A DNA stretch of 64,000 nucleotides from Nitrososphaerota archaeon (GCA_033581555.1 JAVQSZ010000004.1:32001-96000), one strand, 5' to 3'. Positions 5,973-49,709 are shown, counted from the stretch's first letter. The notes: a model not told the origin generated them from the sequence alone. Program-made: numbers and translations.

Positions 5973-6202
5973 GTCCCTTCCGCCCCCTCCCCGTAGATAA
6001 CGTGTTCCGGTCGACCGAGCGCTGCTGGTGGCCGCTCTGGCGCCCGTGCTGGAGGCCCCTGAGGGCACAGAACGTCCGCTTGACGTCTCCGGAACGAGGG
6101 CCCGGTCCTCCATGAGCGTGGGCTTGTAGTTTCAACAATAAAGCGCATGGTCCGTTGTTATGACCACATCATTATTAAGCAACAATTTGTAGTACCCGCG
6201 CC

Positions 6203-7417: not shown

Positions 7418-7430
7418 GCCGTGTAACGCC

Positions 7431-8776: not shown

Positions 8777-8778
8777 TA

Positions 8779-10369: not shown

Positions 10370-10457
10370 CCCGGTTCACCCCGATCTCCGCTCACGTGAA
10401 AAATCCTCCTTCTTGAGGGCGTTAGGCATTTTACCGGAGTCCCAGACTGTGAGGTGG

Positions 10458-11342
10458 ATGAAGGACCAGCGCGAGATGACCTTCCTCGAGCACCTGATCG
10501 AGCTGAGGAACAGAGTGAAGGTAGTCATCGTCTCGTTCGTGGTCGCCCTGGTCTTCTGGCTCGCGTTCCCGAAGGACCTGCTGTCCCTCAACCCGAACCC
10601 CGAGGGTTTCTTGACCGGCCAGTACGTCCCAGTCATCAACGTCGTGCTCGAGAGGACGCTCCAGCTCGCGGAGGGCAGGGTTAAGATCATCGCGGGTACC
10701 CTCACGTCGCCGCTGGAGGTCTACTTCGTCGCGTCGGCGCTGATGGCCCTCATCACAGTCTCCCCTGTTATAGCGTATGAGTTCTACATGTACGTCGACC
10801 CCGCCCTCTACCCCCATGAGAGGAGACTCGTCTGGGGCTTCATGGCCGCCTTCATAGGGCTCTTCTCCTTCGGGGCGACCTTCTGCTACTTCGTCGTGAT
10901 GCCGCTGGTGATCAGGTTCATGCACATCTTCGCCGAGATCGTGGGCGCCGAGTTCGTCGTCACAGCGGTCGACTACTACTTCATGGTCTTCGCGACCGTG
11001 GCGCTGATGGGCTTCCTCTTCACGATCCCCGCGGTCTTCGTCCTCCTGGTCAGGCTGGGGATCGTGAGCTCCTCGATCGTGACGAAGAACAGGCTCTACG
11101 TCTACGGGCTCCTCTACATCGCGATCGCGCTCATCACGCCGGACGGATGGCTGGTCGCGAACACCGTCCTCTTCCTCCCGATGGTGGTGCTGACGGAGAC
11201 CGCAGTCCTGATCGCTAAGAGGTTCGAGAGGAGGAGGGAGGAGGAGGCGAGGGGGCCGCCGATGAGGAACTGCAAGTTCTGTGGGTACAGGATGCCCGAG
11301 GACGAGGTCTTCTGCCCGGCGTGTGGCAGGGCTCAGGAGTGA
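10458..11342 (+). CDS. tatC: Twin-arginine translocase subunit TatC with C-terminal Zn ribbon
   Basis: EMTFLEHLIELR, PALYPHER and ALITPDG. Start at ATG 10458 after GAGGTG. Confidence 0.92.
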   Translation: MKDQREMTFLEHLIELRNRVKVVIVSFVVALVFWLAFPKDLLSLNPNPEGFLTGQYVPVINVVLERTLQLAEGRVKIIAGTLTSPLEVYFVASALMALITVSPVIAYEFYMYVDPALYPHERRLVWGFMAAFIGLFSFGATFCYFVVMPLVIRFMHIFAEIVGAEFVVTAVDYYFMVFATVALMGFLFTIPAVFVLLVRLGIVSSSIVTKNRLYVYGLLYIAIALITPDGWLVANTVLFLPMVVLTETAVLIAKRFERRREEEARGPPMRNCKFCGYRMPEDEVFCPACGRAQE

Positions 11343-11665
11343 GGCGTCGGGGCGCGGAGCCTCTCCTTCACCTTCCTGATCGAGCCGGATGCCGTGACGA
11401 CGTCCAGCGCGACGGGCACTCCGTTGACCTCCGAGACGCTCGAGGCCGCTAGGATTACCCTCCAAACCGAGCTAAGGGAGCACCTGAGGACTAGTTCGCC
11501 CTTGGACTCGTCGAACCAAACCAGCTTCAGGTTTGCCCTGGCCGACTCGATCTGTCCGTAGAGCATCTCGAGGGCGGTATGGACCGTCCCGTGAACGGCT
11601 GCCGGGCTCGGCCGGCCGCCCCTCGACCTCACCCTAACCCCCAGGTACCTCCTCTTCGCCCTCAA
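11333..11665 (-). CDS. RNase P protein Pop5/Rpp14
   Basis: KRRYL...LYG...LRC...SGSIRK pattern; adjacent to Rpp30. Confidence 0.88.
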   Translation of the reverse strand: MRAKRRYLGVRVRSRGGRPSPAAVHGTVHTALEMLYGQIESARANLKLVWFDESKGELVLRCSLSSVWRVILAASSVSEVNGVPVALDVVTASGSIRKVKERLRAPTPHS

Positions 11666-35016: not shown

Positions 35017-36654
35017 ATGGCGGTCACGATCGAGGAGGTCAGGCAAGAGCTGAAGCGGAAGGTCGTGACGACGACCAGGAGCGTCTGCCCGGAGTGCAAC
35101 AGGATCCTGCCGGCCGAGGTCTTCGAGGAGGACAACAGGATCTACATCCGGAAGGTCTGCCCGGTCCACGGCGAGTTCGACGAGCTCTACTTCGGGGACG
35201 CCAAGATGTACTACAAGTTCGCGAAGTGGCTGAAGGACGGCAAGGGGACGGGGAACCCCGACGTCGAGATGCCGAGGTGCGCCTGTCCCGCGAACTGCGG
35301 CCTCTGCAGCAGCCACCTGAGCCACACCGGCCTCGCGAACCTCGTGATCACGAACCGCTGTGATCTCCACTGCTGGTACTGCTTCTTCTACGCCGAGAAG
35401 GCCGGCTACATCTACGAGCCGACCCTCGAGCAGATCAGGGAGATGGCCCTGAACTTGAGGGCCGAGAGGCCCGTCCCGGGCAACTCGATCCAGATCACGG
35501 GTGGCGAGCCTACCCTCAGGGACGACCTCCCAGAGATCGTGAGGATACTGAAGCAGGTCGGCGTGGACCACATCCAGCTCAACACCAACGGCATAAGGCT
35601 CAGCAAGGACTTCGAGTACTTCAAGAGGCTGAAGGAGGCCGGGATCAGCAACCTCTACCTCAGCTTCGACGGCGTCACGCCAAGGACTAACCCGAAGAAC
35701 CACTGGGAGGTGCCAGGCGTCCTCGAGAACGCGAGGAAGCTCGGGATCGGAGTCGTACTGGTGCCCACGGTGATCAAGAGCGTCAACGACCAGGAGCTAG
35801 GCGACATCGTGCGATTCGGGTTCGCGAACATCGACGTCGTCAGGGCGGTCAACTTCCAACCCGTCAGCCTCACGGGCAGGATGCCGAAGAAGGAGCGTGA
35901 GAAGTACAGGATCACGATCCCCGACTGCATCGCGAGGATCGAGGATCAGACAAACGGCGAGATCCCGAGGGATGCATGGTTCCCCGTTCCAGCCTGCACA
36001 CCTCTCACAGGCTTCTTGGAGGCCCTGACGAGAAGGGCCCACTACGAGCTGAGCATTCACTTCGTCTGTGGCGCCGGCACCTACGTCTTCAAGGACGGCG
36101 ACCGGATGGTCCCGCTGACCGCCTTCGTCGACGTCGAGGGCCTGATCAAGTACCTCCAGGACAAGGCGGAGGAGATCGAGGCCGGCCGTAACAGGGCCTG
36201 GGTCGGGCTGAAGGTCCTCTGGAACATCGGGAAGTTCATCAACGAGAGGAGGCAGCCGGCGGGCATGAACCTCAAGAGGATGCTCTTCGACATCTTGGTC
36301 AAGCACGACTACAAGAGCGTCGGCGACTGGCACAGGAGGTCTCTCTTCCTAGGGATGATGCACTTCCAGGACAAGTACAATCACGACGAGGAGCGGCTCA
36401 GGCGGTGCGACATTCACTACCTCACTCCCGACAACAGGATCATCCCGTTCTGCGCCTTCAACGTCATCCCGGAGTGGTACAGGGACAGGATCCAGTCGGT
36501 CTATGGCGTCTCGATCGAGGAGTGGGAGAGGAGGACGGGAAGGAAGCTCTCGGACGACTTCTACAAGAGGAAGCTCCCGGTGAAGCAGGCCGCGGTGCCA
36601 ATGGCCTCGACGAAGACCGCCGGCTTCGGCGGACTGGTCCAGGAGACTGCCTGA
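35017..36654 (+). CDS. tes: Tetraether lipid synthase (GDGT/macrocyclic archaeol synthase, radical SAM)
   Basis: N-terminal SVCPEC...KVCPVHG, CPANCGLCSSH, radical SAM NRCDLHCWYCF, VNFQPVS and C-terminal RCDIHY...IPFCAFN. Confidence 0.93.
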   Translation: MAVTIEEVRQELKRKVVTTTRSVCPECNRILPAEVFEEDNRIYIRKVCPVHGEFDELYFGDAKMYYKFAKWLKDGKGTGNPDVEMPRCACPANCGLCSSHLSHTGLANLVITNRCDLHCWYCFFYAEKAGYIYEPTLEQIREMALNLRAERPVPGNSIQITGGEPTLRDDLPEIVRILKQVGVDHIQLNTNGIRLSKDFEYFKRLKEAGISNLYLSFDGVTPRTNPKNHWEVPGVLENARKLGIGVVLVPTVIKSVNDQELGDIVRFGFANIDVVRAVNFQPVSLTGRMPKKEREKYRITIPDCIARIEDQTNGEIPRDAWFPVPACTPLTGFLEALTRRAHYELSIHFVCGAGTYVFKDGDRMVPLTAFVDVEGLIKYLQDKAEEIEAGRNRAWVGLKVLWNIGKFINERRQPAGMNLKRMLFDILVKHDYKSVGDWHRRSLFLGMMHFQDKYNHDEERLRRCDIHYLTPDNRIIPFCAFNVIPEWYRDRIQSVYGVSIEEWERRTGRKLSDDFYKRKLPVKQAAVPMASTKTAGFGGLVQETA

Positions 36655-36839
36655 GTTCAGAACCGGTATTTCTCAGCCGCTTTAACGCATCCTCTGACCC
36701 TTCTGCGTAGCCTATAAAGACCCTTGTCACCCCAGTTGACGCGGACGTAGATAACGATCACCGTGTAAGCGAGCGTGGTAAGGCATGCGTGACCGCGCCA
36801 AAAAGATCGAGGGGTGCCATAAGCGGGTTTCGCGCTTTT

Positions 36840-38216
36840 TCAGCGTACGCTGGAGTATAGAACATGACCCGGGTCGAGAGCGTCCTTTATCTTAGAGAGG
36901 ATGGTCAGCGCCGGTCCCGGATCACTTTCAAGCCATCTCCTCCTCAACTGTCCGACGCCGTGGTGATGGCTTATCGTCGCACCGACCTCCAGCGCCGTTT
37001 CGAAAGCCGTCTCCACAATCTTCCAGTATAAGTCTGGATCCTTCTCGTACACGACGGTGAAGTATAGTGCGCCTCCGTTCGCGTAAAAGTGCGAGGCGTG
37101 AGCCAGGACTCCAGCGACTCCGGGAAGCTTACTGATCCTGCTCCGAATCGCCTCGTGGAGACCCGGGAGCTTGGACCACGTAGACGCGACGTCTATGGTC
37201 TCGAACCACAAGCCCATAGAGTCCAGGAGCTTAATTTCATTCAGGTAGTCGAACCTAGACTTGAGCCATGAGTCGTAGGGCCCGTCGCCCACGAAGTAGC
37301 CGCCCAGTTCCTCGACCCTCTTTCTGACCTTCTCCCACGTGGCCGTCACGAGCTCATGTTCGTAACCCTCGTAACCCAAAAGCAGCACCGATTTACTCGA
37401 ACCGAACCTCATTGCCGATTCGGCCTCGTCGGACAACCGGGCCAACGATGGCTTCATCCCCCTGATCATCAGCTCCTTCACGATCTTCAGGCCTCCGCTG
37501 AAGCTCGGCGTCTCAAAGGCTGCCTTGACCGAGTGCTTGGGCACCGGGAGCACCCTCAGCGTTGCCTTGGTGATCACGCCGAAGGCACCCTCGGATCCGA
37601 CGAAGAGGTGAACGAGGTTAGGGCCCATGGACGACCGAGGAGTTAGCACGTTCCTGGTCCACAGGATGTCCCCAGTGGGCGTCACGACCTCGAGGTTCAG
37701 GACCAGGTCCTCGACGTTGCCGTAACCCGTGCTGTACTGGCCTGAGCTCATCGACGCTATGCAACCGCCCACGGAAGCCAGGTGGAAAGACTGGGGCACG
37801 TGCCTCAGGGTGTACCCCCGTCCCATGAGCCAGTCTTCGAGGTCGCAGAGCAGGACGCCCGCCTCGGCCGTGACCGTTAGGTCCTCCTCGCTGAAGTCGA
37901 TCACCCTGTTCATCCTGCTCAAGCTCAGCACCACGCAGTCGTCCGAAGGGGCGGAGGCCCCCGTGACGCTCGAGCCGCCTCCGTGCACGACGACGCGGAC
38001 TCGGTGCTCGTTGGCCTTCCTGAGCACGTAAGAGACCTCCTCGGCGCTCTCGACGAATATCACGGCCCTAGGTTTGAACTTCCACGAGCCCAGCTTCTCC
38101 AGCAGCATCGCCAGAGGCCACCAGTCCCTCGAGTACTTGCTGGTCACCTCCGCGTCAGTTCTGACGTCGTCGCCCAAGGACCAGCTCACGTCCCTGATGA
38201 ACTCCTCTAGGCCCAT
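36840..38216 (-). CDS. FAD-linked oxidoreductase, alkyl-dihydroxyacetonephosphate synthase-like
   Basis: HGGGSSVTG, HVPQSF..ASVGG, GQYSTGYGNVED, PRSSMGP, GSEGAFGVIT, SHFY..G..LYF and SHHHGVG. Confidence 0.85.
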   Translation of the reverse strand: MGLEEFIRDVSWSLGDDVRTDAEVTSKYSRDWWPLAMLLEKLGSWKFKPRAVIFVESAEEVSYVLRKANEHRVRVVVHGGGSSVTGASAPSDDCVVLSLSRMNRVIDFSEEDLTVTAEAGVLLCDLEDWLMGRGYTLRHVPQSFHLASVGGCIASMSSGQYSTGYGNVEDLVLNLEVVTPTGDILWTRNVLTPRSSMGPNLVHLFVGSEGAFGVITKATLRVLPVPKHSVKAAFETPSFSGGLKIVKELMIRGMKPSLARLSDEAESAMRFGSSKSVLLLGYEGYEHELVTATWEKVRKRVEELGGYFVGDGPYDSWLKSRFDYLNEIKLLDSMGLWFETIDVASTWSKLPGLHEAIRSRISKLPGVAGVLAHASHFYANGGALYFTVVYEKDPDLYWKIVETAFETALEVGATISHHHGVGQLRRRWLESDPGPALTILSKIKDALDPGHVLYSSVR

Positions 38217-39598
38217 CTCAATGCCCTCCTCCAGGCGTCCACGTCGACTACGACCTCCAGTTCGCCGGGCTCGACGACCAGGTCGACGTCGACCCTCTCC
38301 TCCAGGTCCCGCATGGATATCCTGCCGTCGTACAGCGCCAGCAGCATGGCCACGCCTCTGCTCGAGGCGTCCGCTCCCCTCACCCTCTCGATCCTGCGGC
38401 CGCACGCCGTCGAGAGCAGCTTGAGGTAGCAGGTGCTGTTGCTGAGGCCACCGTCGACCCGTATCACGCTTCGTCTCCCAGCAACCTCCTCGACGGCTTC
38501 TACGATACTGTGAGCAGCCAGTACGAGGCCCTCCAAAACCCCTCTGACCAAGTCGCTCCTAGTGTGTGCCAGCGATAGTCCGTAGAGCAGTCCCGTGCAT
38601 CCCCTCCTCCTGGGGAACCTGGTCTCGGTAAGCGATGGCACGAAAACCGCCGAGTGCTTAGCCTCCGTGACAGCCTTGTCGAGAGCCTCCACTTCGTCGA
38701 GAAGACCGATCCTGCAGAGCCACTCCACCGTCGATCCACCTGCAGAAGTGTATCCCTCGATGGCGTAGGCCCTGCGACCGCCGATGTTGTAGACCACCAG
38801 CGGTATGAGCTCGCCACGCGGAATCGTGAAGTCGGATACCGACGCATCCACGAACGTCCCGGTGCCGCAGGTGATCTTCAGGCAGTCTCTCCCAAGACAC
38901 GAAGAGCCTATGATCGCGGACTGCTGGTCGGCTATCAGGGCAGCGAAGTCGACTCCGTCCATCGACCCGATGTGGCTGCAGTTGTCCACGATTTCGGGGC
39001 TCACCGACTCAGGTATGCCCAGCAGGTTGTAGACGATCTCGAGCCTCTTCGCCGTCTTGGGGTGAATGAGGCCTGTAAGGGCCTCGTTGGAGAGATCGTT
39101 GACGTACCTGTTCGAGGCGACGTAGGCGACGTAAGAGCTCAGCGTTCCGACGAACGCCTCCCCCTTCGAGACCATCTCCCTGAGCGCGGAGTCGTTCTCA
39201 AGGAGCCACTTGATCCTGACCGCGGGGCTGTCCGGCCGTATCACCTTTCCCAGCACGGGGACGAGCCTGAGCGCCCTGTATACCGGCCGTGAGGTTATCG
39301 CCCTGCCTCTGGCGTCGAGCCACGTGATCACGTCGGTCAGGGGCCGTCCGCCCTTGTCCCACGCCAGCACCGAGCCTCTGTAGGTGGTTATGCCGGCCAG
39401 CCTGACGCCGAGTTCCTTAAGCCTCCTCGCGAACCCCAGGAACGTCTCCCTTATCGCGGTCGCGCTCTGCTCGACGTGACCCTCAGCGGTCCTCCGGAGG
39501 GGCACGCTAACCCCCTCCTTGAGGACGCAGTTCAGCTCATCGTCGTAGACGCTCAGCTTGATGCTGCTGCTCCCTACGTCGACGACGCCGTACTTCAT
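38207..39598 (-). CDS. FGGY-family kinase (glycerol kinase/GK5-like)
   Basis: VDVGSSSIK, ITWLDAR, IADQQSA, KITCGTGTF and IRVDGGLS. Confidence 0.87.
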   Translation of the reverse strand: MKYGVVDVGSSSIKLSVYDDELNCVLKEGVSVPLRRTAEGHVEQSATAIRETFLGFARRLKELGVRLAGITTYRGSVLAWDKGGRPLTDVITWLDARGRAITSRPVYRALRLVPVLGKVIRPDSPAVRIKWLLENDSALREMVSKGEAFVGTLSSYVAYVASNRYVNDLSNEALTGLIHPKTAKRLEIVYNLLGIPESVSPEIVDNCSHIGSMDGVDFAALIADQQSAIIGSSCLGRDCLKITCGTGTFVDASVSDFTIPRGELIPLVVYNIGGRRAYAIEGYTSAGGSTVEWLCRIGLLDEVEALDKAVTEAKHSAVFVPSLTETRFPRRRGCTGLLYGLSLAHTRSDLVRGVLEGLVLAAHSIVEAVEEVAGRRSVIRVDGGLSNSTCYLKLLSTACGRRIERVRGADASSRGVAMLLALYDGRISMRDLEERVDVDLVVEPGELEVVVDVDAWRRALRWA

Positions 39599-40545
39599 CC
39601 CGCGAATACCTCCACGCGCTCGACGTCGCCAGTAACGTCGATCACCGCGTAACCCTCTCTCAGCTCGTACGTCTTTCCCTCGATCAGAGCTCTGGATCCC
39701 CTGTGACCTATCACGAGGAACCTCCTGAGGCATTCGCAGACGGTATGGGGGAAGACTCTCAGGTTCCCCCTCGCGATCACCTTCACGGTCTTCCCGCACT
39801 CGCAGGACATCCTGTCCGCCATCATCTCAGAGGCCTTCACCAGGACCTTCGGGTCGTAGACGTCAATTGCCGCGTGTCCTGCCGCGGGGAACTCCGGGAA
39901 CGGGTTCCAGGGTTCGAACATCGCTATCACGAGCGTGTCGACATCGAGGGCCTCTCCGTTGACGTACACGGACGAAAGTCTGCCGCGCCCCCTGACCCGC
40001 TCGACCCTGCCCCTCAGAACCGAGACGTCGTCGGGGACCATCGACTCGAGGTCGTCTCCTGATGGGCCGGAGGGGTCCACTATGACGACCCTTCTGGTGC
40101 GCTCCAGAAGCTTCACGGCGAGCAGCGCGCTGTACCTGTTTAGGCCGTATAGGACCACGTGTCTGCCCGGCAAGAGCCCCTCCATGAGGAGGTCTAAGAC
40201 CGCGTGGTAGGGGTACACGCCGGAGGGCCTGTCTCCGAGGATTCCTAGCTCGAGGGGCGTAAGGACTCTGAAGCCTGTGGCCACCACGCAGCCCTTCAGG
40301 CCTTCGACCCCGTCGCTCGAGACGGCCACCAGTTCGGATCCGACCCTCACGGCGGTCTTCTCGGTTTCCACCTTGACCTCCCGCGAGAGCTCGTCCACGA
40401 CGCTCATGGCCTCGGGGTCGATCACGGAGATGCCGCCCAGCTGGCGCCTCGTCTCGATGACCCTCGCGTCGATCCCCCTGTCGAGCAGATGTTTGGAGAG
40501 CGAGAGCCCGGCCAGCCCAGCCCCTATGACCGTTCTACCAGCCAT
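39595..40545 (-). CDS. FAD/NAD(P)-binding oxidoreductase (GlpA partner subunit type)
   Basis: GAGLAG, VVATG and GILGDRPSGV; overlaps glpA. Confidence 0.75.
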   Translation of the reverse strand: MAGRTVIGAGLAGLSLSKHLLDRGIDARVIETRRQLGGISVIDPEAMSVVDELSREVKVETEKTAVRVGSELVAVSSDGVEGLKGCVVATGFRVLTPLELGILGDRPSGVYPYHAVLDLLMEGLLPGRHVVLYGLNRYSALLAVKLLERTRRVVIVDPSGPSGDDLESMVPDDVSVLRGRVERVRGRGRLSSVYVNGEALDVDTLVIAMFEPWNPFPEFPAAGHAAIDVYDPKVLVKASEMMADRMSCECGKTVKVIARGNLRVFPHTVCECLRRFLVIGHRGSRALIEGKTYELREGYAVIDVTGDVERVEVFAG

Positions 40546-41936
40546 GAGCCCTCACCCCCCTTGACGAAGACTTCGGGTCTCAGACCAGTAAACCTGAACA
40601 CCTCGACTATCGCCCTGCCCAAGCAGTGCTGACCCTGACAGGACCCCATGCCTAGTCTTGTCCTGAACATGACGCCATCGAGCGTCTTAGAGCCTGCCCT
40701 GATCGCGTCCTCGATGTCAGCCGAGCTGACGGCCATGCAGGGACAGACGACGGTGCCTCTCGGGCCCTTGACCGCGAGCGGGTCGATCTGAAGGAGCTCC
40801 CGGGTCCTATGCGCGAAGTCGGGATTCCTGAGGCCGCTCTTCGGCTTGAGATCCAATCCGGCCCTCTTGAGCATGTCCAGCACTGTCACGGCGATGGCCG
40901 GTGCTGCCGTGAGCCCCGGCGACTCCACGCCCACCAGGTTCACGACCCTGAAGGTCTTCGGGGAATAGGCGATGACGAAGTCGCCGCGGACGTGTGAGGG
41001 CCTCACGCCGGCGTACGCCTTGAGGGGTCTGCCCTTGGTCCTGACGAGCCCGCCGAACCTCGCCACGAGCACCTCGACGTCCTCAGGATAGACTCCCTTG
41101 TCGTCCCTCGAGCCCCCTCTGACCAGGTTAGGGCCCCAGATGGTGTTGCCCCAGACCGTTGGGATTATGCCGCCGCCCTTGGTCTCACCTCCGCGGACCA
41201 GCTGGAGGGGCGCAACGACGCTCCTCACTTGAAGCCCGTCGAAGACCAGCATCGCCCCCCTCTTCGCGACTAGGGACTCCTTCGCTCCGCTGAGGTTCGC
41301 TATCCTGTCGGACTCTAAACCGGCAGCGTTGACGAGGAACTTCGACTTTATTGGACCTCGGTTGGTCCATAAGACAATATAATTCGGCTCGACTTCTATT
41401 CCTTCGACTTTGGTGTTGAAACGGAACTTCACACCACGAAACCTCGAGACGTCGTGCAGCTTGTACACTAGATCGAAGGAATCGATGACGCCGTAGCCAG
41501 CTATCCTGATAGCCGCATAACCAATCACGTTGGGCTCCATGGCCCTCAGCTCCGTACAGTTCACAACCGATACGTCGAAACCCTTGGTTCCGTAGTAGAG
41601 CCTCAGGACCGCGTAGACGAGCGGCAAGAGGAGGAGCTGCCCTAACGAGCGAGCTACCAGAAGCGCCGGAAGGCGCCAGAGTTTCACCTTCAGATCCGCG
41701 GCCACCGCGTCGTACATCCTGTTGCCCCGCAGAGCTAGCGCGCTCTTCACGGACTTAAGGGGTAGCTGGACGACGTGCAAAACGCCCGCGTGTCCCTTTG
41801 AAACACCGAAACCCGGCTCTGCCTCGCTCTCTACCACTACGACATCGACCTCGTATTTCGATAACTCATAAGCAACGAAAAGCCCCACAACGCCGGCGCC
41901 GATTATCGCGACGTCGTGAGCCCTGTTACCCTCCAT
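40524..41936 (-). CDS. glpA: FAD-dependent glycerol-3-phosphate dehydrogenase-like protein with BFD-type [2Fe-2S] tail
   Basis: IIGAGVVG, VNAAGL, YAGVRP, GVESPGLTAAPA, VCPC and RTRLGMGSCQGQHC. Confidence 0.78.
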   Translation of the reverse strand: MEGNRAHDVAIIGAGVVGLFVAYELSKYEVDVVVVESEAEPGFGVSKGHAGVLHVVQLPLKSVKSALALRGNRMYDAVAADLKVKLWRLPALLVARSLGQLLLLPLVYAVLRLYYGTKGFDVSVVNCTELRAMEPNVIGYAAIRIAGYGVIDSFDLVYKLHDVSRFRGVKFRFNTKVEGIEVEPNYIVLWTNRGPIKSKFLVNAAGLESDRIANLSGAKESLVAKRGAMLVFDGLQVRSVVAPLQLVRGGETKGGGIIPTVWGNTIWGPNLVRGGSRDDKGVYPEDVEVLVARFGGLVRTKGRPLKAYAGVRPSHVRGDFVIAYSPKTFRVVNLVGVESPGLTAAPAIAVTVLDMLKRAGLDLKPKSGLRNPDFAHRTRELLQIDPLAVKGPRGTVVCPCMAVSSADIEDAIRAGSKTLDGVMFRTRLGMGSCQGQHCLGRAIVEVFRFTGLRPEVFVKGGEGSWLVERS

Positions 41937-43647
41937 GAGACTCCTTCCCCCGACGGAGCCGATAGTTCAACCACCTTGAAGCGAAGAAGGCCACGCTTGC
42001 GACCACCATCAGAGGCGCGCCGAAGAACCCAGTGAAGGCCGATCTCATTAGCGAGTTGAAGAAGAACAGAGCGTCGTTCATGTCAGGGGACGGGAACCTG
42101 AAGCTGGCGCCGTAATCGACGTAGAACGGCAACGCGTAAGCTAAGCTGACCAGTATTGCGGCCAGTGCCGTGAAAACAGAGATCACGAGAGCCCTGAACA
42201 AGTCCCTCCTCGAAGGCACGAACTCTACTACCCCGATGATGGCGCCCGCGACCAGCCCTCCGACGATTGCGCTCGTCTGAATTCTGCTGATCAGCCATCC
42301 GAACGACTCTATGTCTGAGAGGCTGAAGGGGCCATTGTTCAGCGCGTAGGAAGCCCAGAAAGACAGCTCATACGCCAGCAGTCCGATGATCAGCGAAATC
42401 AAGTGCCTCCGCAAGCCTCTGACCACGGTCACTTTGACCGCGAGTCCTGTCACAACGACGGCGAAGGAAGTCGCCGCGGCGGCCAGGGCTAACCTGAGGT
42501 TTCCGCCTCCCTTCCTCAGGTCCTTGGTCATCGAGTCGTAACGGCTTACGGGATCCGTTGTGGGATCCGTCCTGAGTCCGGTCGCCTCGCTTAACGCTCC
42601 GACCACCCTCAGCCCCTGATCGATCGATGCTCTGAGGTAACGCTCAACGGTATCACCCGGAAGTGCAAAGCCTCCACCCAACACGACGCCTATGGAGTTC
42701 GCGGGAATCTTCCATCCCATCACCATCGATACTGTGGGAGCGACGTCGTTGTGCGTGAACGCATCGTCATAGACGCCGGGCTTCACGACGGGTCCTAAGA
42801 ACAACAGGAAGACCCTCCTGACTTCGCGCTCTGGTCCTCCGTGATGTGCTCCTCTCTTGAACCCGTGATCGGTTAAAATGACTATCAATGTGTCATCGCT
42901 TAAGCCGTCCCTTTTCAAAGAATTCAGGAAGTTCATGGTCAATTGGACTATGTTCACTACGGTCGCGTTGTACTCCTCTCCTGGAAACCCAGCTTTGTGT
43001 CCCATAATGTCTACGTCATTTACCCCAACCCACAGGAAGACCTTATGGCCCATGTTTGCGTGCCTCTTGAGGAGCTCGAGGCCTTTGCTCAATGAAAGGG
43101 CGCCGTGCCCTCCACCGTCGCCGACGCTCACGCACTCGTCGATGAGGTGCGAGAACAGGGTTCTGAAGGAGTCGTCGCCGCTGCAGAGTATCCTGTACCC
43201 AGATTCCTTGGCGACTTTGACGAGACTGTCTACCTTGAGGGTCCTCTTGAAGTCATTCGAGGACGCCTCGTTCAGTTCTGGAGGGGTCCCGGTAAGTATG
43301 GATGCCCTGGCGGGCAAGGAGTAGGAGGGCATGTTAGACAGGCCGTTCGGGTAAAACGCGCCGAGTGAAAGGAGCGATGCTATGTGGTCGTGCTTGCGGC
43401 TCAGGTCGGTCAAGACTCTCACGTCTAGGCCGTCGAGCAGAACGAAGACGACGTGCTTCGCTGCGGCCTCTCCCGAGACCTCTACGCGATCGACTTCGGT
43501 CAGCGCGTCCAGGTACGGGTTCCTGTAATCGATCCAGCCGTTGTAGGCGCTAAGGGCCGTGGAGGCCGCAGCATAGGAGAGGGCCGGAACGAGGATGAGG
43601 GCGATCGCGAGGGACGCGTAGAATAGCTTCACAACGCACTCACACAT
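41926..43647 (-). CDS. Alkaline-phosphatase-superfamily membrane enzyme (PIG-N/G/O- or NPP-like)
   Basis: VLLDGL, PSYSLPAR..ILTG, DIMGH, LTDHG and HHGG; N-terminal anchor plus multi-TM C-terminus. Confidence 0.8.
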   Translation of the reverse strand: MCECVVKLFYASLAIALILVPALSYAAASTALSAYNGWIDYRNPYLDALTEVDRVEVSGEAAAKHVVFVLLDGLDVRVLTDLSRKHDHIASLLSLGAFYPNGLSNMPSYSLPARASILTGTPPELNEASSNDFKRTLKVDSLVKVAKESGYRILCSGDDSFRTLFSHLIDECVSVGDGGGHGALSLSKGLELLKRHANMGHKVFLWVGVNDVDIMGHKAGFPGEEYNATVVNIVQLTMNFLNSLKRDGLSDDTLIVILTDHGFKRGAHHGGPEREVRRVFLLFLGPVVKPGVYDDAFTHNDVAPTVSMVMGWKIPANSIGVVLGGGFALPGDTVERYLRASIDQGLRVVGALSEATGLRTDPTTDPVSRYDSMTKDLRKGGGNLRLALAAAATSFAVVVTGLAVKVTVVRGLRRHLISLIIGLLAYELSFWASYALNNGPFSLSDIESFGWLISRIQTSAIVGGLVAGAIIGVVEFVPSRRDLFRALVISVFTALAAILVSLAYALPFYVDYGASFRFPSPDMNDALFFFNSLMRSAFTGFFGAPLMVVASVAFFASRWLNYRLRRGKESHGG

Positions 43648-43668
43648 GCAATTCGGGCTGAACGCGAT

Positions 43669-45495
43669 TTAAGGGTTGCAGCCATCTTCGTCGTGAATCG
43701 GAACAGACCGACTGGACTTGTTGAGTAGCGCTTCTTGGGCTGCGGTAATTGGTGGGGCGCTCTTCGACGCAGTGAGCTCACGGGTGAACGCACGGGTCAT
43801 TCGCGCGCTCTCGGACCGGTAACGGGTCCCACGTTCACGGTCGAGTCCTAGTACGTAATTTCGCAGCAAGTAAGTCATGACGCCCGCCACCAGCGCGGTG
43901 ATCAGGTTGCCGACCGCATGGAACTGACCATATGCTACTCCCAGGAGCAGGTACCACGCGATCAGGGGCCCGAGGAAGATCCTCTCTCCGAACTCGATCA
44001 GGAGCATCAAGAACGTGGTGAGGCCCGCGACCAGCAGGAGGGCCCTGACAGGCCTCCGCCTCACGAACGGTATCCACGGCCAGAGCGTGAGGATCGGTGC
44101 GAGTAGGACCACTGTCCCGAACCTGTTGTAGAGGAGCGAGGCGACGGCTGCGACCGAGAGTGCGACCATCACGGGGAACGGGTGCGCACGTCCCCTCTGA
44201 CGGAACATGACTGCGGCCGCGACCGGAGGAGCGAGGAAGAGGGCGAAGACCAACGGGTCCGGCGAGTAAAGGTATGGATGCCGCGGCGGAGGAGGGTAGG
44301 TGTCGTACCTCGGTATCAGGCCGAGGGCCGGCGAGACCGATACGAGCGAGAAGGAGACGACGAAGGCGGCCGCGTAGACGCCGAGCTCGAGGAACGCGCC
44401 CTTGACCTCCCTCCTCCTCTCCCAGAGCGATGCCGCGTGGACGATGACCGGTATCGCGAGGACCGAGGGAGCGACGTACGTCACCGGACCAGGCACGTAA
44501 CGGCCGTCCAGCGCGAGGTAATCGTCGTCGTATGGAGGTACGCGGTCGGCCTCGTCGAGGCTCTTGACCAGTGCGTAGACGTAGCGGCCGTAGGCCTCGA
44601 AGGAACTGACCCTCATGTTCTCCATCGTGTCCTTGGGAGTGTGGTAGACCTCCCTCGCGAGCTCGGGAGCGTCGCCCCTGGTCGATACCTCGATCGCGGG
44701 GATTCCCTTAGCGATGATGGGCCCCTGATCCGTGAAGGAGATGTCGACCGCCCTATAGACGTACTCCCACAGGCCGCTCGGGTCCTCGACGCGGACTCCC
44801 AAGCGATCGCCCACGTCCCTGCAGAGCCTCCTGAGCCATAGCGGAGCGTACCCGGAGAATTGGCCCATCGACTCGAGGTAGATCGACGTCAAGTTGCCGA
44901 CCGTGAGGTCCTCGGCGACCACCACAGCTCTGATCGGCGGGCCCTCGTACCGCTCGACGAAGTGCCTCGCTCCCTGCATCCCCCACTCCTCCGAGTCGAC
45001 GAAGGCGAAGACGATCTCGCGCCTGTTGGGGACTTCCCTCAACGACCGCGCCAGCTCGAGAAGGACTCCGACGTGACCGGCCGTGTCGCTCGCTGCCTGG
45101 TAGCTCGTGGGGGCCATGTCGTAGTTGACCAGGACGACGACCGCATCGGGGACGCTTCCTTTGAGCGACGCGTAGACGTTCCTCCCGTTCCTGGGCCGCT
45201 CGAGGACCACCTCGAACTCCTGGACCTTTACCTCGTAGCCCATCTCGCGTAGCCGGTCGCTGATCCAGAGGAACGCCCGGAAGGCGTCCTCGCTCCCTGT
45301 AGTCCTATATGGGAAGCGGGACGCTAGCTCGGCGGCGTACTCGTAGGCTTTGGTCGCGTTGAACCTGATCTCCTGGACGACCGGCTCGATCTCCGGCACG
45401 ACCGGCTCCGAGACGAGGTGGAGCAGCAGGAAGGCAGCGACGCATGACACGTAGACCGCGGCCAGAACCCTATTGTCTCTCAACGTCGACGCCAA
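43669..45495 (-). CDS. M28-fold membrane protein with multi-TM C-terminus
   Basis: NVYA, VNYD (usual His replaced by Asn), ASDTAG, DSEEWGMQGA, TDQ and YHTPKD. Confidence 0.82.
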   Translation of the reverse strand: MASTLRDNRVLAAVYVSCVAAFLLLHLVSEPVVPEIEPVVQEIRFNATKAYEYAAELASRFPYRTTGSEDAFRAFLWISDRLREMGYEVKVQEFEVVLERPRNGRNVYASLKGSVPDAVVVLVNYDMAPTSYQAASDTAGHVGVLLELARSLREVPNRREIVFAFVDSEEWGMQGARHFVERYEGPPIRAVVVAEDLTVGNLTSIYLESMGQFSGYAPLWLRRLCRDVGDRLGVRVEDPSGLWEYVYRAVDISFTDQGPIIAKGIPAIEVSTRGDAPELAREVYHTPKDTMENMRVSSFEAYGRYVYALVKSLDEADRVPPYDDDYLALDGRYVPGPVTYVAPSVLAIPVIVHAASLWERRREVKGAFLELGVYAAAFVVSFSLVSVSPALGLIPRYDTYPPPPRHPYLYSPDPLVFALFLAPPVAAAVMFRQRGRAHPFPVMVALSVAAVASLLYNRFGTVVLLAPILTLWPWIPFVRRRPVRALLLVAGLTTFLMLLIEFGERIFLGPLIAWYLLLGVAYGQFHAVGNLITALVAGVMTYLLRNYVLGLDRERGTRYRSESARMTRAFTRELTASKSAPPITAAQEALLNKSSRSVPIHDEDGCNP

Positions 45496-46549
45496 GCCCC
45501 TTCAGTCCCTCCAGGAAAGACGCGGGGTCGATGACCGCCTCGGGCGGGAGCACACCCCTCTCCGACACCTCGCCCCTCAGGATCGAGTGAGCGCCGAGGG
45601 CGGCGGGCGCAGCCGTCAGCTTCCTCATCCTGTTCACGGAGCAGTAGCTAACCCGCCTCTCGCCCCTCACGGCCTCGACCCTGACGCCGCTGAGCCCGAC
45701 CCCTCCGACCCTGAAGACGCCCTCGATTCTGTGGATCGCCCTCGAGAGCTGCTCGAGCCTCTCCTCGGTCGAGGTCAGCCGCATTCCGACTAGCGTCCTG
45801 AGCAGACCGTTCTGCCACGCCGGGACTAGGCCCCCTCTCACGGTCACGTTCCTAGAGACCCTGAGGTGACTTGGTATCGTGAGCGGCTCTGGGTGGCCCA
45901 CGTAGTACAGCTTCAGCTTCCCGATGAAGGGGAACTCGAAGACGGCCGGAGACGATCCTGCCCTCACCTTGGTCAGCCTGCCCTCGAGGTACATCGGGAC
46001 CTCGCCCGTGACGGTGTGGAGGAGGTGCATCACGACCGCGAGCCCCTTCGAGTCGGCGGCCGACCCGAACCAACCTATGTTCACCTCGTCGACCTCTCCT
46101 CCTAGCTCCTCGCAGCACCTCTTCGCAATGACATTAGAGAGCCCTGGCGTCCACCCGAGACCGGTTACGAAGGTGACGTCCTTCTCGATGGCTCGCCGGT
46201 GCAGGCCGAGGATCCTCTCGGTGGCGTCGTGGTCGTCGCAGACGTCGACCGCGTCGATCCCCAGCTCGATCAGGGCTGAGGCCACGACGTGCCCGTACTT
46301 GAAGAACGGCCCCACGGCGCTCACGACGACCTCATACCCTCTCGCTGCGGTCATGTCCTCCCTCGAGGTGACGTCGACCTTGACGGCCCCAACGTCGCCC
46401 AAGTCTTTCAGGGACCGTGCGACCTCGAGCGCTCGCTGGACGTTCACGTCGCCTATGTCGACCTCCTCTCCGAGCTTCACCAGCTCCTCGACTATTCCGC
46501 CCCCGATGTCGCCGGCTCCGCCGAGCACCAGGACGCGCCTGGACCTCAT
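45470..46549 (-). CDS. Saccharopine dehydrogenase-like oxidoreductase
   Basis: LGGAGDIG, AVGPFF, DVCDD, GLGWTPGLSN, GHPEP and GVLPPE. Confidence 0.85.
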   Translation of the reverse strand: MRSRRVLVLGGAGDIGGGIVEELVKLGEEVDIGDVNVQRALEVARSLKDLGDVGAVKVDVTSREDMTAARGYEVVVSAVGPFFKYGHVVASALIELGIDAVDVCDDHDATERILGLHRRAIEKDVTFVTGLGWTPGLSNVIAKRCCEELGGEVDEVNIGWFGSAADSKGLAVVMHLLHTVTGEVPMYLEGRLTKVRAGSSPAVFEFPFIGKLKLYYVGHPEPLTIPSHLRVSRNVTVRGGLVPAWQNGLLRTLVGMRLTSTEERLEQLSRAIHRIEGVFRVGGVGLSGVRVEAVRGERRVSYCSVNRMRKLTAAPAALGAHSILRGEVSERGVLPPEAVIDPASFLEGLKGLGVDVERQ

Positions 46550-47643
46550 AGCGATGCGCTGCTTAGGGCCTTCGGGAGCTTAGTCGTGTTCTCGTAACCC
46601 GTCGATCCCAGAACCACGTCGTCCTCCAGCCTCACTCCGAATTTCCCGGGCAAGTATATTCCGGGCTCGATCGTAAATATCATTCCAGACACCAGCGGAG
46701 ATTTGTCGCCCTCGACTATGTACGGCGCCTCGTGGACCTCGACCCCGAGCCCGTGGCCGGTGCGGTGTATGAAGAACGAAGCGTAACCCTCATGCGCAAT
46801 GACCGACCTCGCGGCCCTGTCGACCTCCTCAGCAGAAACTCCAACGGCTATCGCGTCCAAGGCCCGCTGCTGCGCCTCCAACACGACGCTGAAGACGCGC
46901 TCCTGCTCCGGGTCTGGTCTATCTAGCACAAAGGTCCTAGTGAAGTCGGCGTAGTAGCCCCTGTAACAGACCGAGGCGTCGAAGACTATCGCGTCGCCCT
47001 CACGGATCCTCCTCGACGTGGGCTCGAGGTGTGGGTTCGCGCCGTTCGGTCCGGACTGGATCAGGCAGTAAACGCTCTCGGCTCCCAAGTCGTAGCAACG
47101 ACGGAGGAACGTGGTCATCGCGTCCCTCTCAGTCATCCCGGGCCTGAACTCCGCCATCGTCTCGAGCATCGCCTCCTCCAAGACGCGGGCGGCCATCACG
47201 TGTCTGACGACCTCATCGGGGTCCTTCGGAAGCCTCATGCTGACGATAACGTGGTCGACTATGTCGAACTTCAGTCCCGGAGCCCTTTGCACGAGGTTCC
47301 TGTAAAGCCACACCGGCGTCCTCGACTCCACGCCGATCACCCCCGAGAGTCCGGAGAGCAGTCTCTCCACGAAGCCCCAGGGTCCCGTCCCGTCGCCGTA
47401 GGGGAGGACCTCACAGTAGCGTCCTATCGCCTCCTCGACCCTGTCCCTGTCGAGCTGTGGGACGACCATAACCGGCTCCCGGTCGAACCCGGCAAGGAGG
47501 AACGCGGGCCTCTCGAAGACCTCCAGCGTGAAGTCGAGGAGGTACCTCATGTTTGGGCCGGGCACGACTATCGCACCATCGAAACCGGACGCCCTGCAGA
47601 GCTCGAGGAACCTCTTCAGCCTCGAATCGACGCGGACCGGCAC
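46546..47643 (-). CDS. pepQ: Xaa-Pro peptidase (M24)
   Basis: PH, GYYADFTRT, HRTGHGLGVEVHEAP, TIEPGIY and GVRLEDD. Confidence 0.9.
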   Translation of the reverse strand: MPVRVDSRLKRFLELCRASGFDGAIVVPGPNMRYLLDFTLEVFERPAFLLAGFDREPVMVVPQLDRDRVEEAIGRYCEVLPYGDGTGPWGFVERLLSGLSGVIGVESRTPVWLYRNLVQRAPGLKFDIVDHVIVSMRLPKDPDEVVRHVMAARVLEEAMLETMAEFRPGMTERDAMTTFLRRCYDLGAESVYCLIQSGPNGANPHLEPTSRRIREGDAIVFDASVCYRGYYADFTRTFVLDRPDPEQERVFSVVLEAQQRALDAIAVGVSAEEVDRAARSVIAHEGYASFFIHRTGHGLGVEVHEAPYIVEGDKSPLVSGMIFTIEPGIYLPGKFGVRLEDDVVLGSTGYENTTKLPKALSSASL

Positions 47644-47782: not shown

Positions 47783-48751
47783 ATGGGCGCGGATCCGCTC
47801 CTCACGGTGAAGGGCCTAAAGACCTACTTCTACACCTCGATGGGCGTCGTGAAGGCCGTCGACGGCGTCAGCCTGAGGGTGGGGAGGGGGTCCGCTGTCG
47901 GGATAATCGGGGAGTCGGGCTCGGGGAAGACGATGACCGGACTCTCGATCCTCAGGCTCGTGCCATATCCCGGCCGCATAGTCGCGGGTGAGGTCCTCTT
48001 GGACGGGGTAGACTTGCTCAAGCTCAGCGAGGAGGAGATGAGGAGGATAAGGGGGAAGAGGATCTCGATCGTCTTCCAGGACGCGCTCACCAGCCTGAAC
48101 CCCGTGTTGACGGTCGGCGAGCAGCTGGCCGAGCCCCTGATGACCCACCTCGGCCTCAGTAGGAAGGAGGCCTATGAGCGTGCCACGGAGATACTCAAAA
48201 GGGTCGGGATACCGGACGCGAGCAGGAGGCTCACCAACTACCCTCATCAGTTCAGCGGCGGCATGAGGCAGCGCGTCCTGATAGGCATGGCGATCTCTTG
48301 CAACCCGGAGCTCCTGATCGCGGACGAGCCCACGACGGCCCTCGACGTGACCACTCAGAAGCAGATCATGGACCTATTCAGGGAGCTGATGGAGAGGATG
48401 AAGATGACGCTTCTGCTGATCACTCACGACATAGGCGTGGCCGCAGAGGTGTGCGACTACATCTACGTGATGTACGCGGGCCAGATCGTCGAGGGCGGAC
48501 CGACTGAACAGATCATCTCGGACCCTAAGCATCCGTACACGAGAGGGCTGATAGAGTCGATCCCGAGGGGCTTCAAGACGGAGGCGAGGGCCAAGCCGAT
48601 CAGTGGGACGGTGCCCTCGCTCCTCAACCTACCTACCGGGTGCAGGTTCCATCCCCGCTGTCCTCTCGCGATGGAGAAGTGCAGGAGGGAGGAGCCCGAT
48701 CTCATAGAGCTCGGGGACGGAAGGAGCGTGAGGTGTCTGCTGTATGAGTGA
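47783..48751 (+). CDS. oppD: Oligopeptide ABC transporter ATPase (OppD/DppD)
   Basis: GESGSGKT, YPHQFSGGMRQR, IADEPTTALD and GCRFHPRC. Confidence 0.93.
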   Translation: MGADPLLTVKGLKTYFYTSMGVVKAVDGVSLRVGRGSAVGIIGESGSGKTMTGLSILRLVPYPGRIVAGEVLLDGVDLLKLSEEEMRRIRGKRISIVFQDALTSLNPVLTVGEQLAEPLMTHLGLSRKEAYERATEILKRVGIPDASRRLTNYPHQFSGGMRQRVLIGMAISCNPELLIADEPTTALDVTTQKQIMDLFRELMERMKMTLLLITHDIGVAAEVCDYIYVMYAGQIVEGGPTEQIISDPKHPYTRGLIESIPRGFKTEARAKPISGTVPSLLNLPTGCRFHPRCPLAMEKCRREEPDLIELGDGRSVRCLLYE

Positions 48752-49709
48752 CGGCGAGCTCCTGATCCGGCTTGAGGACGTGAGGAAGTACTTCCCTGTC
48801 TACAGGGGGATCCTGAGGAGGAAGGTCGGGGAGGTCAAGGCCGTCGACGGCGTCTCGCTCGGTGTGAGGGCAGGGGAGGTCTTCTCCGTCGTCGGGGAGT
48901 CGGGGAGCGGGAAGACCACCCTCGGGAGGATCGCCTGCGGCCTCATCGAACCGGACAGCGGCTCGGTCTACCTCAGGGACACCCCCCTGAGCGAGCTGAA
49001 CGGCCGGAACGCGGCCCATGTCAGGAGGCGGCTCCAGATAATCTTCCAAGACCCGGACTCATCCCTTAACCCCAGGATGACCGTCGAGGCGACCCTCCGA
49101 GAGGCGCTGAGGGCCGCGGGGAAGGCCGGCACCCGCGCCGAGGCCCTAGAGCTCCTTCACATGGTGGGAATGAGGGCCGAGCACCTAGTCCGGTACCCGC
49201 ACGAGCTGAGCGGCGGCCAGAAGCAGAGGGTCTGCATTGCAAGGGCGCTTGCGGTCGACCCGGTCTTCATCGTCGCCGACGAGCCCGTATCCTCCCTCGA
49301 CGTCTCGATCAGGACGTCCATCCTGAACCTGATGCTGGACCTCCAGAGGAGTCTGAACCTCACTTACCTCTTCATCTCGCACGACATGGCGGTGACGAAG
49401 TACGTGGCCGACAGCGTCGCGGTGATGTACTTGGGGAAGATCTGCGAGATGGCACCGGCAAGCGCGTTCTTCAGCAACCCACTCCACCCCTACTCGAGGG
49501 CGCTGCTCTCATCGGTCCCGCAGTTCTACAACCTATGGTCCGGGGAGCACGTGAAGCTCACGGGAGACCCTCCGTCCGCTATGAGCCCGCCTCAGGGGTG
49601 CAGGTTCCACACGCGTTGCCCCTACGCGTTCGAGAGGTGCAGGGTAGAGGAGCCGAAGCTGATCGAGGCCGCTCCGGGTCACTTCGTCGCGTGTCACCTT
49701 TACGGCTAG
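48744..49709 (+). CDS. oppF: Oligopeptide ABC transporter ATPase (OppF/DppF)
   Basis: GESGSGKTT, YPHELSGGQKQR, DEPVSSLDVS and VACHLY. Confidence 0.93.
   Translation: MSDGELLIRLEDVRKYFPVYRGILRRKVGEVKAVDGVSLGVRAGEVFSVVGESGSGKTTLGRIACGLIEPDSGSVYLRDTPLSELNGRNAAHVRRRLQIIFQDPDSSLNPRMTVEATLREALRAAGKAGTRAEALELLHMVGMRAEHLVRYPHELSGGQKQRVCIARALAVDPVFIVADEPVSSLDVSIRTSILNLMLDLQRSLNLTYLFISHDMAVTKYVADSVAVMYLGKICEMAPASAFFSNPLHPYSRALLSSVPQFYNLWSGEHVKLTGDPPSAMSPPQGCRFHTRCPYAFERCRVEEPKLIEAAPGHFVACHLYG

Follow-up and report, generated by a model that had tools for sequence, protein, structure and literature searches.

A conserved archaeal gene cassette of kinase, dehydrogenase and AGPS-like flavoenzyme: a candidate for oxygen-independent breakdown of glycerol ether lipids

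The gene run and its setting

The stretch of DNA analysed here (the window) comprises 64,000 nucleotides from a Nitrososphaerota archaeon (GCA_033581555.1, JAVQSZ010000004.1:32001-96000), with positions counted from its first letter. Its subject is a run of eight minus-strand genes from position 47643 to 36840, in which neighbours overlap by 4–26 nucleotides or sit 21 nucleotides apart, and which ends tail-to-tail with the plus-strand gene tes, with 185 bp between them. The last four genes of the run encode a GlpA/FngA-like dehydrogenase, a small flavoprotein partner, a divergent FGGY kinase and a short flavoenzyme resembling alkyl-dihydroxyacetone phosphate synthase (AGPS), and they form a cassette that recurs in many other loci. 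This gene set is widely conserved yet unstudied, and its role is probably the breakdown or remodelling of glycerol ether lipids without oxygen.

A first-pass annotation of this DNA had described eight packed genes converging on tes, and the description was confirmed by the open reading frame (ORF) layout, the sequence, Pfam and NCBIfam; the last two also confirmed all domain assignments in the run. The source assembly spans 1.43 Mb in 72 contigs, is ~90% complete and has a G+C content of ~64%. The nearest named relative of the window genome is a Candidatus Caldarchaeales metagenome-assembled genome (MAG). The stretch is present in seven hot-spring metagenome runs from four studies, and no RNA run is among the listed carriers.

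Conservation and distribution of the cassette

Loci were collected by scanning one genome per species with an 11-row alignment as the query, which returned 80 loci (L013–L092). Stop-to-stop ORFs were called in these loci and searched with the window proteins, and a gene was scored as near when it lay within 8 kb of the AGPS-like gene. Among the 43 short-type loci (L013–L055, of which L014 and L015 are near-identical), a DAO-type GlpA-like gene lies near the AGPS-like gene in 34, an FGGY kinase gene in 33 and the small partner gene in 18. At least three of the short-type loci without these genes (L031, L050 and L051) are cut near the AGPS-like gene by a contig end. The 37 further loci (L056–L092) have no nearby FGGY gene and only one GlpA-like gene (L064, a short Acidilobaceae form), and neither gene was found near AGPS genes of the long bacterial type (0/36 loci).

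The full order of GlpA-like, partner, FGGY and AGPS-like genes is found in Desulfurococcaceae- and Acidilobaceae-like MAGs, Vulcanisaeta, Thermofilaceae, a member of the Korarchaeia, Geocrenenecus and Pyrobaculum. The core recurs across Thermoproteota, Korarchaeia, Caldarchaeales and the ammonia oxidisers; ammonia-oxidiser loci carry the GlpA-like, FGGY and AGPS-like genes without the partner, and their GlpA-like proteins have no BFD domain. Furthermore, cassette components occur as fused proteins, all retaining the motif SHHHG: the AGPS-like enzyme with FGGY_N (P0146 and P0147), DAO with the AGPS-like enzyme (P0141, P0142 and P0144), and the AGPS-like enzyme with DAO and DAO_C (P0143).

Recurrence in so many other loci places the arrangement of the last four to five genes of the run beyond chance; this does not extend to the first three genes of the run or to tes. 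The conserved unit is the GlpA/FngA-like dehydrogenase, the small partner, the divergent FGGY kinase and the short AGPS-like enzyme, and pepQ, the saccharopine-dehydrogenase-like gene, the M28 peptidase gene and tes are neighbours outside it. The first-pass annotation had linked the kinase, GlpA-like and AGPS-like genes to one another, and their co-conservation, in part as fusions, bears this out. It had also treated all eight genes as one candidate operon, which did not hold, as pepQ, the saccharopine-dehydrogenase-like gene and the M28 gene lie beside the cassette only in the same-genus locus L013; a saccharopine-dehydrogenase-like match in L032 is ~9 kb off.

The occurrence of the cassette is patchy. 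An orthologue with >35% identity is present in 2 of 41 close relatives, and a cassette-type gene in 5 of 76 genomes of the class and 34 of 401 genomes of the phylum (17 of 158 genera). In the tree described below, the window copy groups with Desulfurococcaceae and Acidilobaceae copies and not with those of other Caldarchaeales. This position suggests lateral transfer of the cassette.

Several loci and proteins of related type depart from the common layout. Two Vulcanisaeta JCM drafts (L025 and L029, ~6200–11400) have GlpA-like and FGGY genes split into several ORFs, as are the partner and AGPS-like genes in L029; these splits are either draft-sequencing frameshifts or cassette decay, and the canonical GlpK genes there likewise appear split or cut by contig ends. 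Three genomes of one genus (G178, G212 and G247) each contain two cassette-type AGPS-like genes, which lie ~3 kb apart in G247. Proteins P0121–P0140 (900–1020 amino acids; source labels of three Deltaproteobacteria and one Polyangia) contain two FAD_binding_4 stretches and one SHHHG motif, and have the appearance of relatives of the AGPS-like family in which VAO modules are fused or in tandem. The Acidilobaceae loci L034, L035 and L064 have short AGPS-like genes of a second type, on a long branch, directly followed by a gene for a 361-residue DAO protein without BFD; no FGGY gene lies nearby, and L034 has a weak 4Fe-4S protein match upstream.

The AGPS-like flavoenzyme

The last cassette gene (36840..38216, minus strand) encodes a 458-residue protein with FAD_binding_4 and FAD-oxidase_C domains. 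Its best solved relatives by sequence are Dictyostelium AGPS (2uuu, E 1.9e-47) and guinea-pig AGPS (4bby, 5.4e-46), ahead of LctD (6.4e-34). Correspondingly, its AlphaFold2 (AF2) model (pLDDT 91.8) has guinea-pig AGPS 4bby as the top Foldseek match (TMq 0.90), with D-lactate dehydrogenases at ~0.84. The first-pass annotation had pointed to the AGPS features SHHHGVG and Y..G..LYF. The protein has SHHHGVG and GGALYF, and in pairwise alignments residues R260, Y385 and H417–419 fall on R419/R352, Y578/Y508 and H615–617 of AGPS (guinea pig/Dictyostelium). The PDB entry titles 'Arg419His' and 'Tyr578Phe' support the guinea-pig residue numbers. Catalytic roles of Dictyostelium AGPS residues R352 and Y508, and acyl-dihydroxyacetone phosphate (acyl-DHAP) as an AGPS substrate, are described in the accessible text of PMC3509576.

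Across 98 aligned sequences, the catalytic Arg, Tyr and HHH are retained in 30/30, 29/30 and 30/30 cassette proteins, respectively, and in all 37 long bacterial AGPS-type proteins, and are found in none of the 18 GlcD-like paralogues. Ten of these 18 paralogues have GEHG in place of HHH, where the window enzyme has SHHHG. Similarly, the window enzyme scores 161.9 bits against the GlcD-type family TIGR00387, below its cut-off of 567.9. A maximum-likelihood tree placed the flavoprotein with AGPS rather than with GlcD or lactate dehydrogenase, on a branch with 100% support that splits 43 AGPS-like rows from 8 GlcD-like rows. The long bacterial AGPS sequences, including those of Myxococcota, fall together on a long branch as a single clade nested within the short forms. 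This nesting depends on a quick LG+G4 search of 51 chosen prokaryotic rows, rooted on the outgroup; another 47 rows, for the most part close duplicates of loci in the tree or additional long bacterial sequences, were omitted. On sequence, fold and tree position, the product of the last cassette gene is AGPS-like and not GlcD-like.

Differences between short and long AGPS forms at R194, R321 and H373 were set aside as distinguishing features, since eukaryotic chains have 'short-type' residues at two of these positions. A complex prediction for the GlpA-like and AGPS-like proteins (score 0.00, mark 0.32) was uninformative in both directions. The database representative P0001, listed as 100% identical, differs from the translation of 36840–38216 at residue 12 (Gly versus Trp).

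The FGGY kinase

The kinase gene (38207..39598, minus strand) encodes 463 residues with FGGY_N and FGGY_C domains. It is a divergent member of its family, and its score of 187.3 bits against TIGR01311 (GlpK) is below the cut-off of 590.35. The signature residues of GlpK are R83, E84, Y135, D245 and F270, according to the accessible text of PMC3245297 and PMC2680290. The window kinase reads R-G-L-D-F where GlpK reads R-E-Y-D-F, so that three of five residues are kept, Glu is replaced by Gly and Tyr by Leu.

This pattern is general. Arg, Asp and Phe are kept in 26 of 26 cassette kinases, in which the E84 position is occupied by Ala (22) or Gly (4), and the Y135 position by Ala (17), Val (4), Leu (2), Ser (2) or Pro (1). 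The fused form P0146 has Ala and Gln, respectively, at these two positions, and in the Archaeoglobales versions Glu alone is changed. Canonical GlpK is encoded elsewhere in three of six genomes checked, namely two Vulcanisaeta and one Infirmifilum (G041, G042 and G044; 662, 506+144 and 425+211 bits). It was not found in the other three (G000, G043 and G045), and the cassette kinase is the sole GlpK-like gene in G000. The signature changes and the coexistence with canonical GlpK in some genomes point to the cassette kinase as a distinct paralogue with a wider, less polar pocket.

The GlpA-like dehydrogenase and its partner

The dehydrogenase gene (40524..41936, minus strand) encodes a 470-residue FAD protein that combines DAO (PF01266, 4e-44) with a C-terminal [2Fe-2S] domain, Fer2_BFD (PF04324, 2.1e-10). 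DAO and BFD-like InterPro domains are the pair by which FngA homologues were defined in the accessible text of PMC13689815. The best NCBIfam match is type 2 glycerol 3-phosphate (G3P) oxidase with 139 bits, where the cut-off is 460, and GlpA (TIGR03377) scores 82 against 553, so that both fall below threshold. In the PDB, the best match is Mycoplasma GlpO (4x9m). Residues 89–107 of the GlpA-like protein form a conserved hydrophobic segment where Mycoplasma GlpO has a polar helix.

The partner gene (39595..40545, minus strand) encodes a small two-Rossmann flavoprotein of 316 residues, which resembles a shortened FngB, NOX or PDH1 alpha chain. Pfam recognises only its N-terminal Rossmann motif, and the fold of its AF2 model (pLDDT 91.5) matches thioredoxin reductase, NADH oxidase and the alpha chain of Pyrococcus horikoshii proline dehydrogenase. 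The second dinucleotide motif is degenerate. Partners in nine loci weakly match the full-length FngB-like protein of L042 (E 3e-6 to 5e-10). The partner may serve as the acceptor for electrons from the BFD cluster, which fits the joint absence of partner and BFD domain in the ammonia oxidisers. A metal site formed by two CxC pairs in the window partner was considered and dropped, as the pairs are not conserved in 16 relatives.

Lipid-related gene context

In the window, the gene directly upstream of the GlpA-like gene (41926..43647, minus strand) encodes a membrane-anchored esterase of the alkaline-phosphatase (AP) superfamily, with 573 residues, partial Phosphodiest and Sulfatase Pfam matches, and one N-terminal and four C-terminal hydrophobic segments. 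It is an accessory component: its gene is found in 6 of the 43 short-type loci, adjoining the cassette in L013–L016 and lying nearby in L028 and L031. Unrelated phosphoesterases of the PLC/AcpA family are encoded in five loci, and occupy the same position, directly upstream of the GlpA-like gene, in Vulcanisaeta; in two further lineages they are nearby.

Bacterial versions of the cassette, found in Chitinophagales, Solirubrobacterales, Methylocystaceae and Acidobacteriota MAGs, replace the FGGY kinase with a YegS/Rv2252/BmrU-family lipid kinase in all four loci with enough sequence (TIGR00147, 154.5 and 163.7 bits; cut-off 118.65). Their gene order is a GntR/UTRA regulator, the AGPS-like gene, a [4Fe-4S/CCG]-BON-DAO-BFD fusion, FngB, DUF1667 and the lipid kinase, so that BON domains are fused to the FngA-like protein. 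For a putative mycobacterial cluster of glpD1, a flavoprotein gene and Rv2252, the literature search gave two papers, with titles on isoniazid response and on resuscitation from dormancy.

Other lipid-related genes recur near the cassette. SCP2 lipid-transfer genes lie near it in seven loci, four of them above the Pfam cut-off; two Pyrobaculum SCP2 genes are below it, yet match the L014 protein by phmmer. A Zn-alcohol dehydrogenase gene is present in four loci, an alpha/beta hydrolase gene in three (two Archaeoglobales and L051, an uncultured archaeon), and an acyl-CoA dehydrogenase gene in three or, with an ADC-like gene, in six loci within ~10 kb. Taken together, the altered kinase signature, the coexisting GlpK, the bacterial swap to a lipid kinase and the recurrent lipid-related neighbours suggest a lipid-bound glycerol substrate for the cassette. 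The first-pass annotation had proposed such a lipid-linked substrate, and the independent context of lipid kinase, BON, SCP2 and phosphoesterases points the same way.

Proposed function and alternatives

The reading favoured here, with a probability of roughly 45%, is that the cassette breaks down O-alkylglycerol ether lipids without oxygen by AGPS-type chemistry. Its substrates and reactions are those that we infer from the observed co-conservation, fusions, conserved residues and lipid-related context. In the proposed scheme, a phosphoesterase on the outer face would remove the phospho-head group, and the altered FGGY kinase would then phosphorylate the free primary hydroxyl of the monoalkylglycerol. 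The GlpA-like flavoprotein would oxidise C2 to yield alkyl-DHAP, passing electrons through its [2Fe-2S] domain to the partner. The AGPS-like enzyme, working in the direction of cleavage, would bring about Tyr-dependent enolisation, formation of a covalent flavin N5 adduct and expulsion of the C1 group, to give an alcohol and, after addition of water, DHAP. DHAP would enter central metabolism, and the alcohol would be oxidised. Phosphorylation, C2 oxidation and AGPS-type expulsion at C1 make up the simplest chemistry that uses every conserved part, and the alcohol and acyl-CoA dehydrogenases, SCP2, the lipid kinase and the head-group esterases fit ether cleavage.

Several observations weigh against ether cleavage. 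Most of the lipid-context genes are found in a minority of loci and none is universal; beside the window cassette, SCP2, alcohol dehydrogenase and acyl-CoA dehydrogenase genes were not seen, and only the AP-superfamily esterase is there. Autotrophic ammonia oxidisers carry the core, which is a poor fit to a purely scavenging role, and the source of a monoalkylglycerol, as opposed to archaeal diethers, is unexplained. No paper was found on this cassette, or joining AGPS, archaea and glycerol kinase, in a search that excluded the supplementary tables of PMC13689815.

The AGPS-like enzyme itself also departs from AGPS. The AGPS-only N-terminal domain with its gate-keeping helix (described in the accessible text of PMC3509576) is absent, and the alignment begins at residue 93 of the Dictyostelium chain; long bacterial AGPS proteins have ~70–100 N-terminal residues that are likewise missing from the short enzyme. 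Dictyostelium R447, reported as catalytically important in the same text, falls on Asn326 beside a gap, in a column where the cassette proteins have E, D, S, N or G. The nearby invariant R321 might act as a stand-in. No paper on AGPS tunnel residues was found.

The remaining counter-evidence comes from iron–sulfur (Fe-S) genes or domains of GlcF/GlpC type, which follow the AGPS-like gene in 17 of the 43 short-type loci (a 4Fe-4S protein in 8, a CCG protein in 4 from Archaeoglobales and a fusion in 5 from bacteria). In the Archaeoglobales, the AGPS-like, CCG and FGGY genes stand together, with no DAO-type gene seen nearby. These genes would suit a net redox role, for which AGPS chemistry has no need; they may reflect net electron flow through the AGPS-like enzyme, or simply the GlpC-type partner of the dehydrogenase. 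Moreover, the fusion P0143 joins the AGPS-like enzyme to a GlpD-type enzyme with DAO_C, which is equally compatible with soluble G3P.

These features would be expected of a variant pathway of glycerol/G3P oxidation, an explanation regarded as unlikely. The FGGY protein would then be a glycerol kinase and the GlpA-like protein with its partner an FngAB-type G3P dehydrogenase; the AGPS-like protein would be a second redox dehydrogenase or electron-transfer subunit working with the GlcF/GlpC-like Fe-S proteins (cf. GlcD–GlcF), and the phosphoesterases would release glycerol from glycerophosphodiesters. Besides the Fe-S genes, the Archaeoglobales set and P0143, this explanation draws on the nearest named families (GlpK, GlpO/GlpA and FngA) and on the lack of another GlpK-like gene in G000. 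However, every one of the 26 cassette kinases has substitutions at two of the five GlpK signature positions, the GlpK, GlpA and GlpO scores are far under their cut-offs, and canonical GlpK coexists with the cassette in half of the six genomes checked. Arg, Tyr and HHH, which are specific to AGPS, are strictly conserved and the GEHG of GlcD-like proteins is absent, and the lipid kinase, BON and SCP2 context is left unexplained.

The altered kinase pocket could also reflect catabolism of a polyol or substituted glycerol that is not a lipid; C4 polyols and solutes containing glycerol are examples. The AGPS-like enzyme would then act on the keto-phosphate so formed, for example by enolisation. The route through erythritol kinase and a GlpD-like dehydrogenase provides an analogy. 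Many FngA homologues sit with sugar kinases and have been proposed as polyol users (accessible text of PMC13689815). This explanation is nevertheless improbable: the residues that replace E84 and Y135 are not polar but small or hydrophobic, bacteria have a lipid kinase in place of FGGY, a soluble polyol would not be expected to go with SCP2, BON and PLC-family neighbours, and neither a sugar transporter nor an aldolase is conserved beside the cassette.

Finally, a biosynthetic role is about as improbable, in which monoacylglycerol or lysophosphatidate would be oxidised to acyl-DHAP and the AGPS-like enzyme would exchange acyl for alkyl, leading to G3P-type (or, after stereospecific reduction, glycerol 1-phosphate-type) ether lipids or to salvage of isoprenoid alcohols: the AGPS catalytic residues are kept, acyl-DHAP is a known AGPS substrate (PMC3509576, accessible text) that a lipid kinase and dehydrogenase could provide, and tes adjoins or lies near the cassette in three loci (L013, L033 and L037), but the GntR/UTRA regulator and the alcohol and acyl-CoA dehydrogenases suggest catabolism, the cassette has no conserved acyl-activating enzyme or reductase, tes adjacency is confined to 1 of 17 genera, the AGPS-specific N-terminal domain is missing, and a patchy gene set found in 34 of 401 genomes is no core lipid pathway.

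tes and other neighbouring genes

The gene facing the cassette (35017..36654, plus strand) is a true tes gene, encoding tetraether lipid synthase (NF045702, 713.7 bits; cut-off 450). All 34 genomes of the phylum that carry a cassette-type gene also have tes. It adjoins the AGPS-like gene only in two of them (G000 and G002, of one genus among 17); in the 16 other genomes with both genes on one contig, these are at least 111 kb apart. In two ammonia-oxidiser loci from another collection, L033 and L037, tes lies 0.7 kb and 3 kb upstream, respectively. The adjacency is lineage-specific and probably due to chance, as the first-pass annotation had cautioned, and a weak link between tes and the cassette may exist. 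Elsewhere, the tes matches in G163:C27 and G188:C52 start at position 102 of the model and lie within open frames 803 and 1021 residues long, which may represent an intein-containing form of Tes or a fusion.

The first three genes of the run, all on the minus strand, are neighbours only. They encode a PepQ protein, an Xaa-Pro dipeptidase-like M24 peptidase (46546..47643; Peptidase_M24 and Creatinase_N), a saccharopine-dehydrogenase-like NAD(P) protein (45470..46549; weak Sacchrp_dh_NADP and Sacchrp_dh_C matches) and an M28 membrane peptidase (43669..45495; Peptidase_M28), which has seven hydrophobic segments, one N-terminal and six C-terminal. Divergent from pepQ are two genes for Opp/Dpp-type ABC ATPases with ABC_tran and oligo_HPY domains (47783-49709). 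These ATPase genes and the M28 peptidase suggest that the first three genes belong to peptide use and not to the cassette.

No tRNA or Rfam family was found between 28 and 52 kb. Just upstream of tes, the segment 31369–34394 has a G+C content of 0.556–0.579, compared with ~0.64 elsewhere. Its ORFs (485 residues on the minus strand and 177 on the plus strand) have no Pfam match, the region has no tRNA or Rfam match, and it may be foreign or fast-evolving DNA.

Significance

For lipid turnover in hot springs, sediments and soils, it is still an open question how microbes break the very stable glycerol ether bond without O2, and this also affects how ether-lipid biomarkers are interpreted. The cassette consists of three ordinary, expressible enzymes with concrete candidate substrates. 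Prokaryotic 'AGPS' matches fall into two kinds that differ in gene context, and not all of them should be taken to denote a capacity for ether-lipid synthesis. One study mentions Agps matches in archaeal MAGs in passing (PMC11868695), a preprint that asks how plasmalogen synthesis arose reports that it found no evidence for the pathway in Archaea (10.1101/2025.10.10.681575), and a survey of archaeal G3P dehydrogenases mentions no AGPS-like neighbour in the passages found (PMC11962113).

If the tree holds, it hints at the origin of the eukaryotic and myxobacterial ether-lipid synthase. A broader and more tentative proposal is that the short AGPS-like enzymes, with kinase and dehydrogenase, would constitute the first O2-independent pathway of glycerol ether cleavage, by reverse AGPS action on alkyl-DHAP. 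Gene transfer would have carried it between thermophilic archaea, ammonia oxidisers and several phyla of bacteria. On this view, the myxobacterial and eukaryotic synthase would have branched off later from this catabolic family and acquired a gating domain at its N-terminus.

Comparison with known systems

AGPS (ADPS, EC 2.5.1.26), known from eukaryotes and myxobacteria, has in common with the cassette enzyme a two-domain fold of VAO type as well as the catalytic Arg, Tyr and HHH, and the cassette enzyme shares a clade with long bacterial AGPS. The solved AGPS chains have 584–658 residues compared with 458 here, where the N-terminal gate domain is absent and R447 has no clear counterpart. Furthermore, the cassette gene stands in a putative operon with a kinase and a G3P dehydrogenase-like enzyme, as in none of the 36 long bacterial AGPS loci, and its proposed direction is cleavage rather than synthesis.

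The GlpK–GlpD/GlpABC systems likewise place an FGGY kinase ahead of a DAO-family flavoprotein, and GlpA also has a BFD [2Fe-2S] domain. The cassette differs in keeping only three of five kinase signature residues and in having an additional AGPS-like enzyme, and the window contains neither GlpB nor GlpC. In Pyrococcus furiosus, FngABC, a G3P oxidoreductase that depends on ferredoxin and NAD (accessible text of PMC13689815), similarly pairs a DAO+BFD subunit, FngA, with a subunit resembling pyridine-nucleotide-disulfide oxidoreductases. Bacterial and Thermofilum variants of the cassette carry full FngB and DUF1667 (FngC) genes, whereas the window partner has 316 residues compared with ~420 for the FngB-like proteins of such loci, and no DUF1667 gene was seen in the window cassette.

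Animal alkylglycerol monooxygenase cleaves 1-O-alkylglycerol ethers, requires oxygen and a pterin, and attacks the alpha-carbon of the alkyl chain. The route proposed here would reach the same end result without O2, by activating the glycerol side of the ether through phosphorylation and oxidation.

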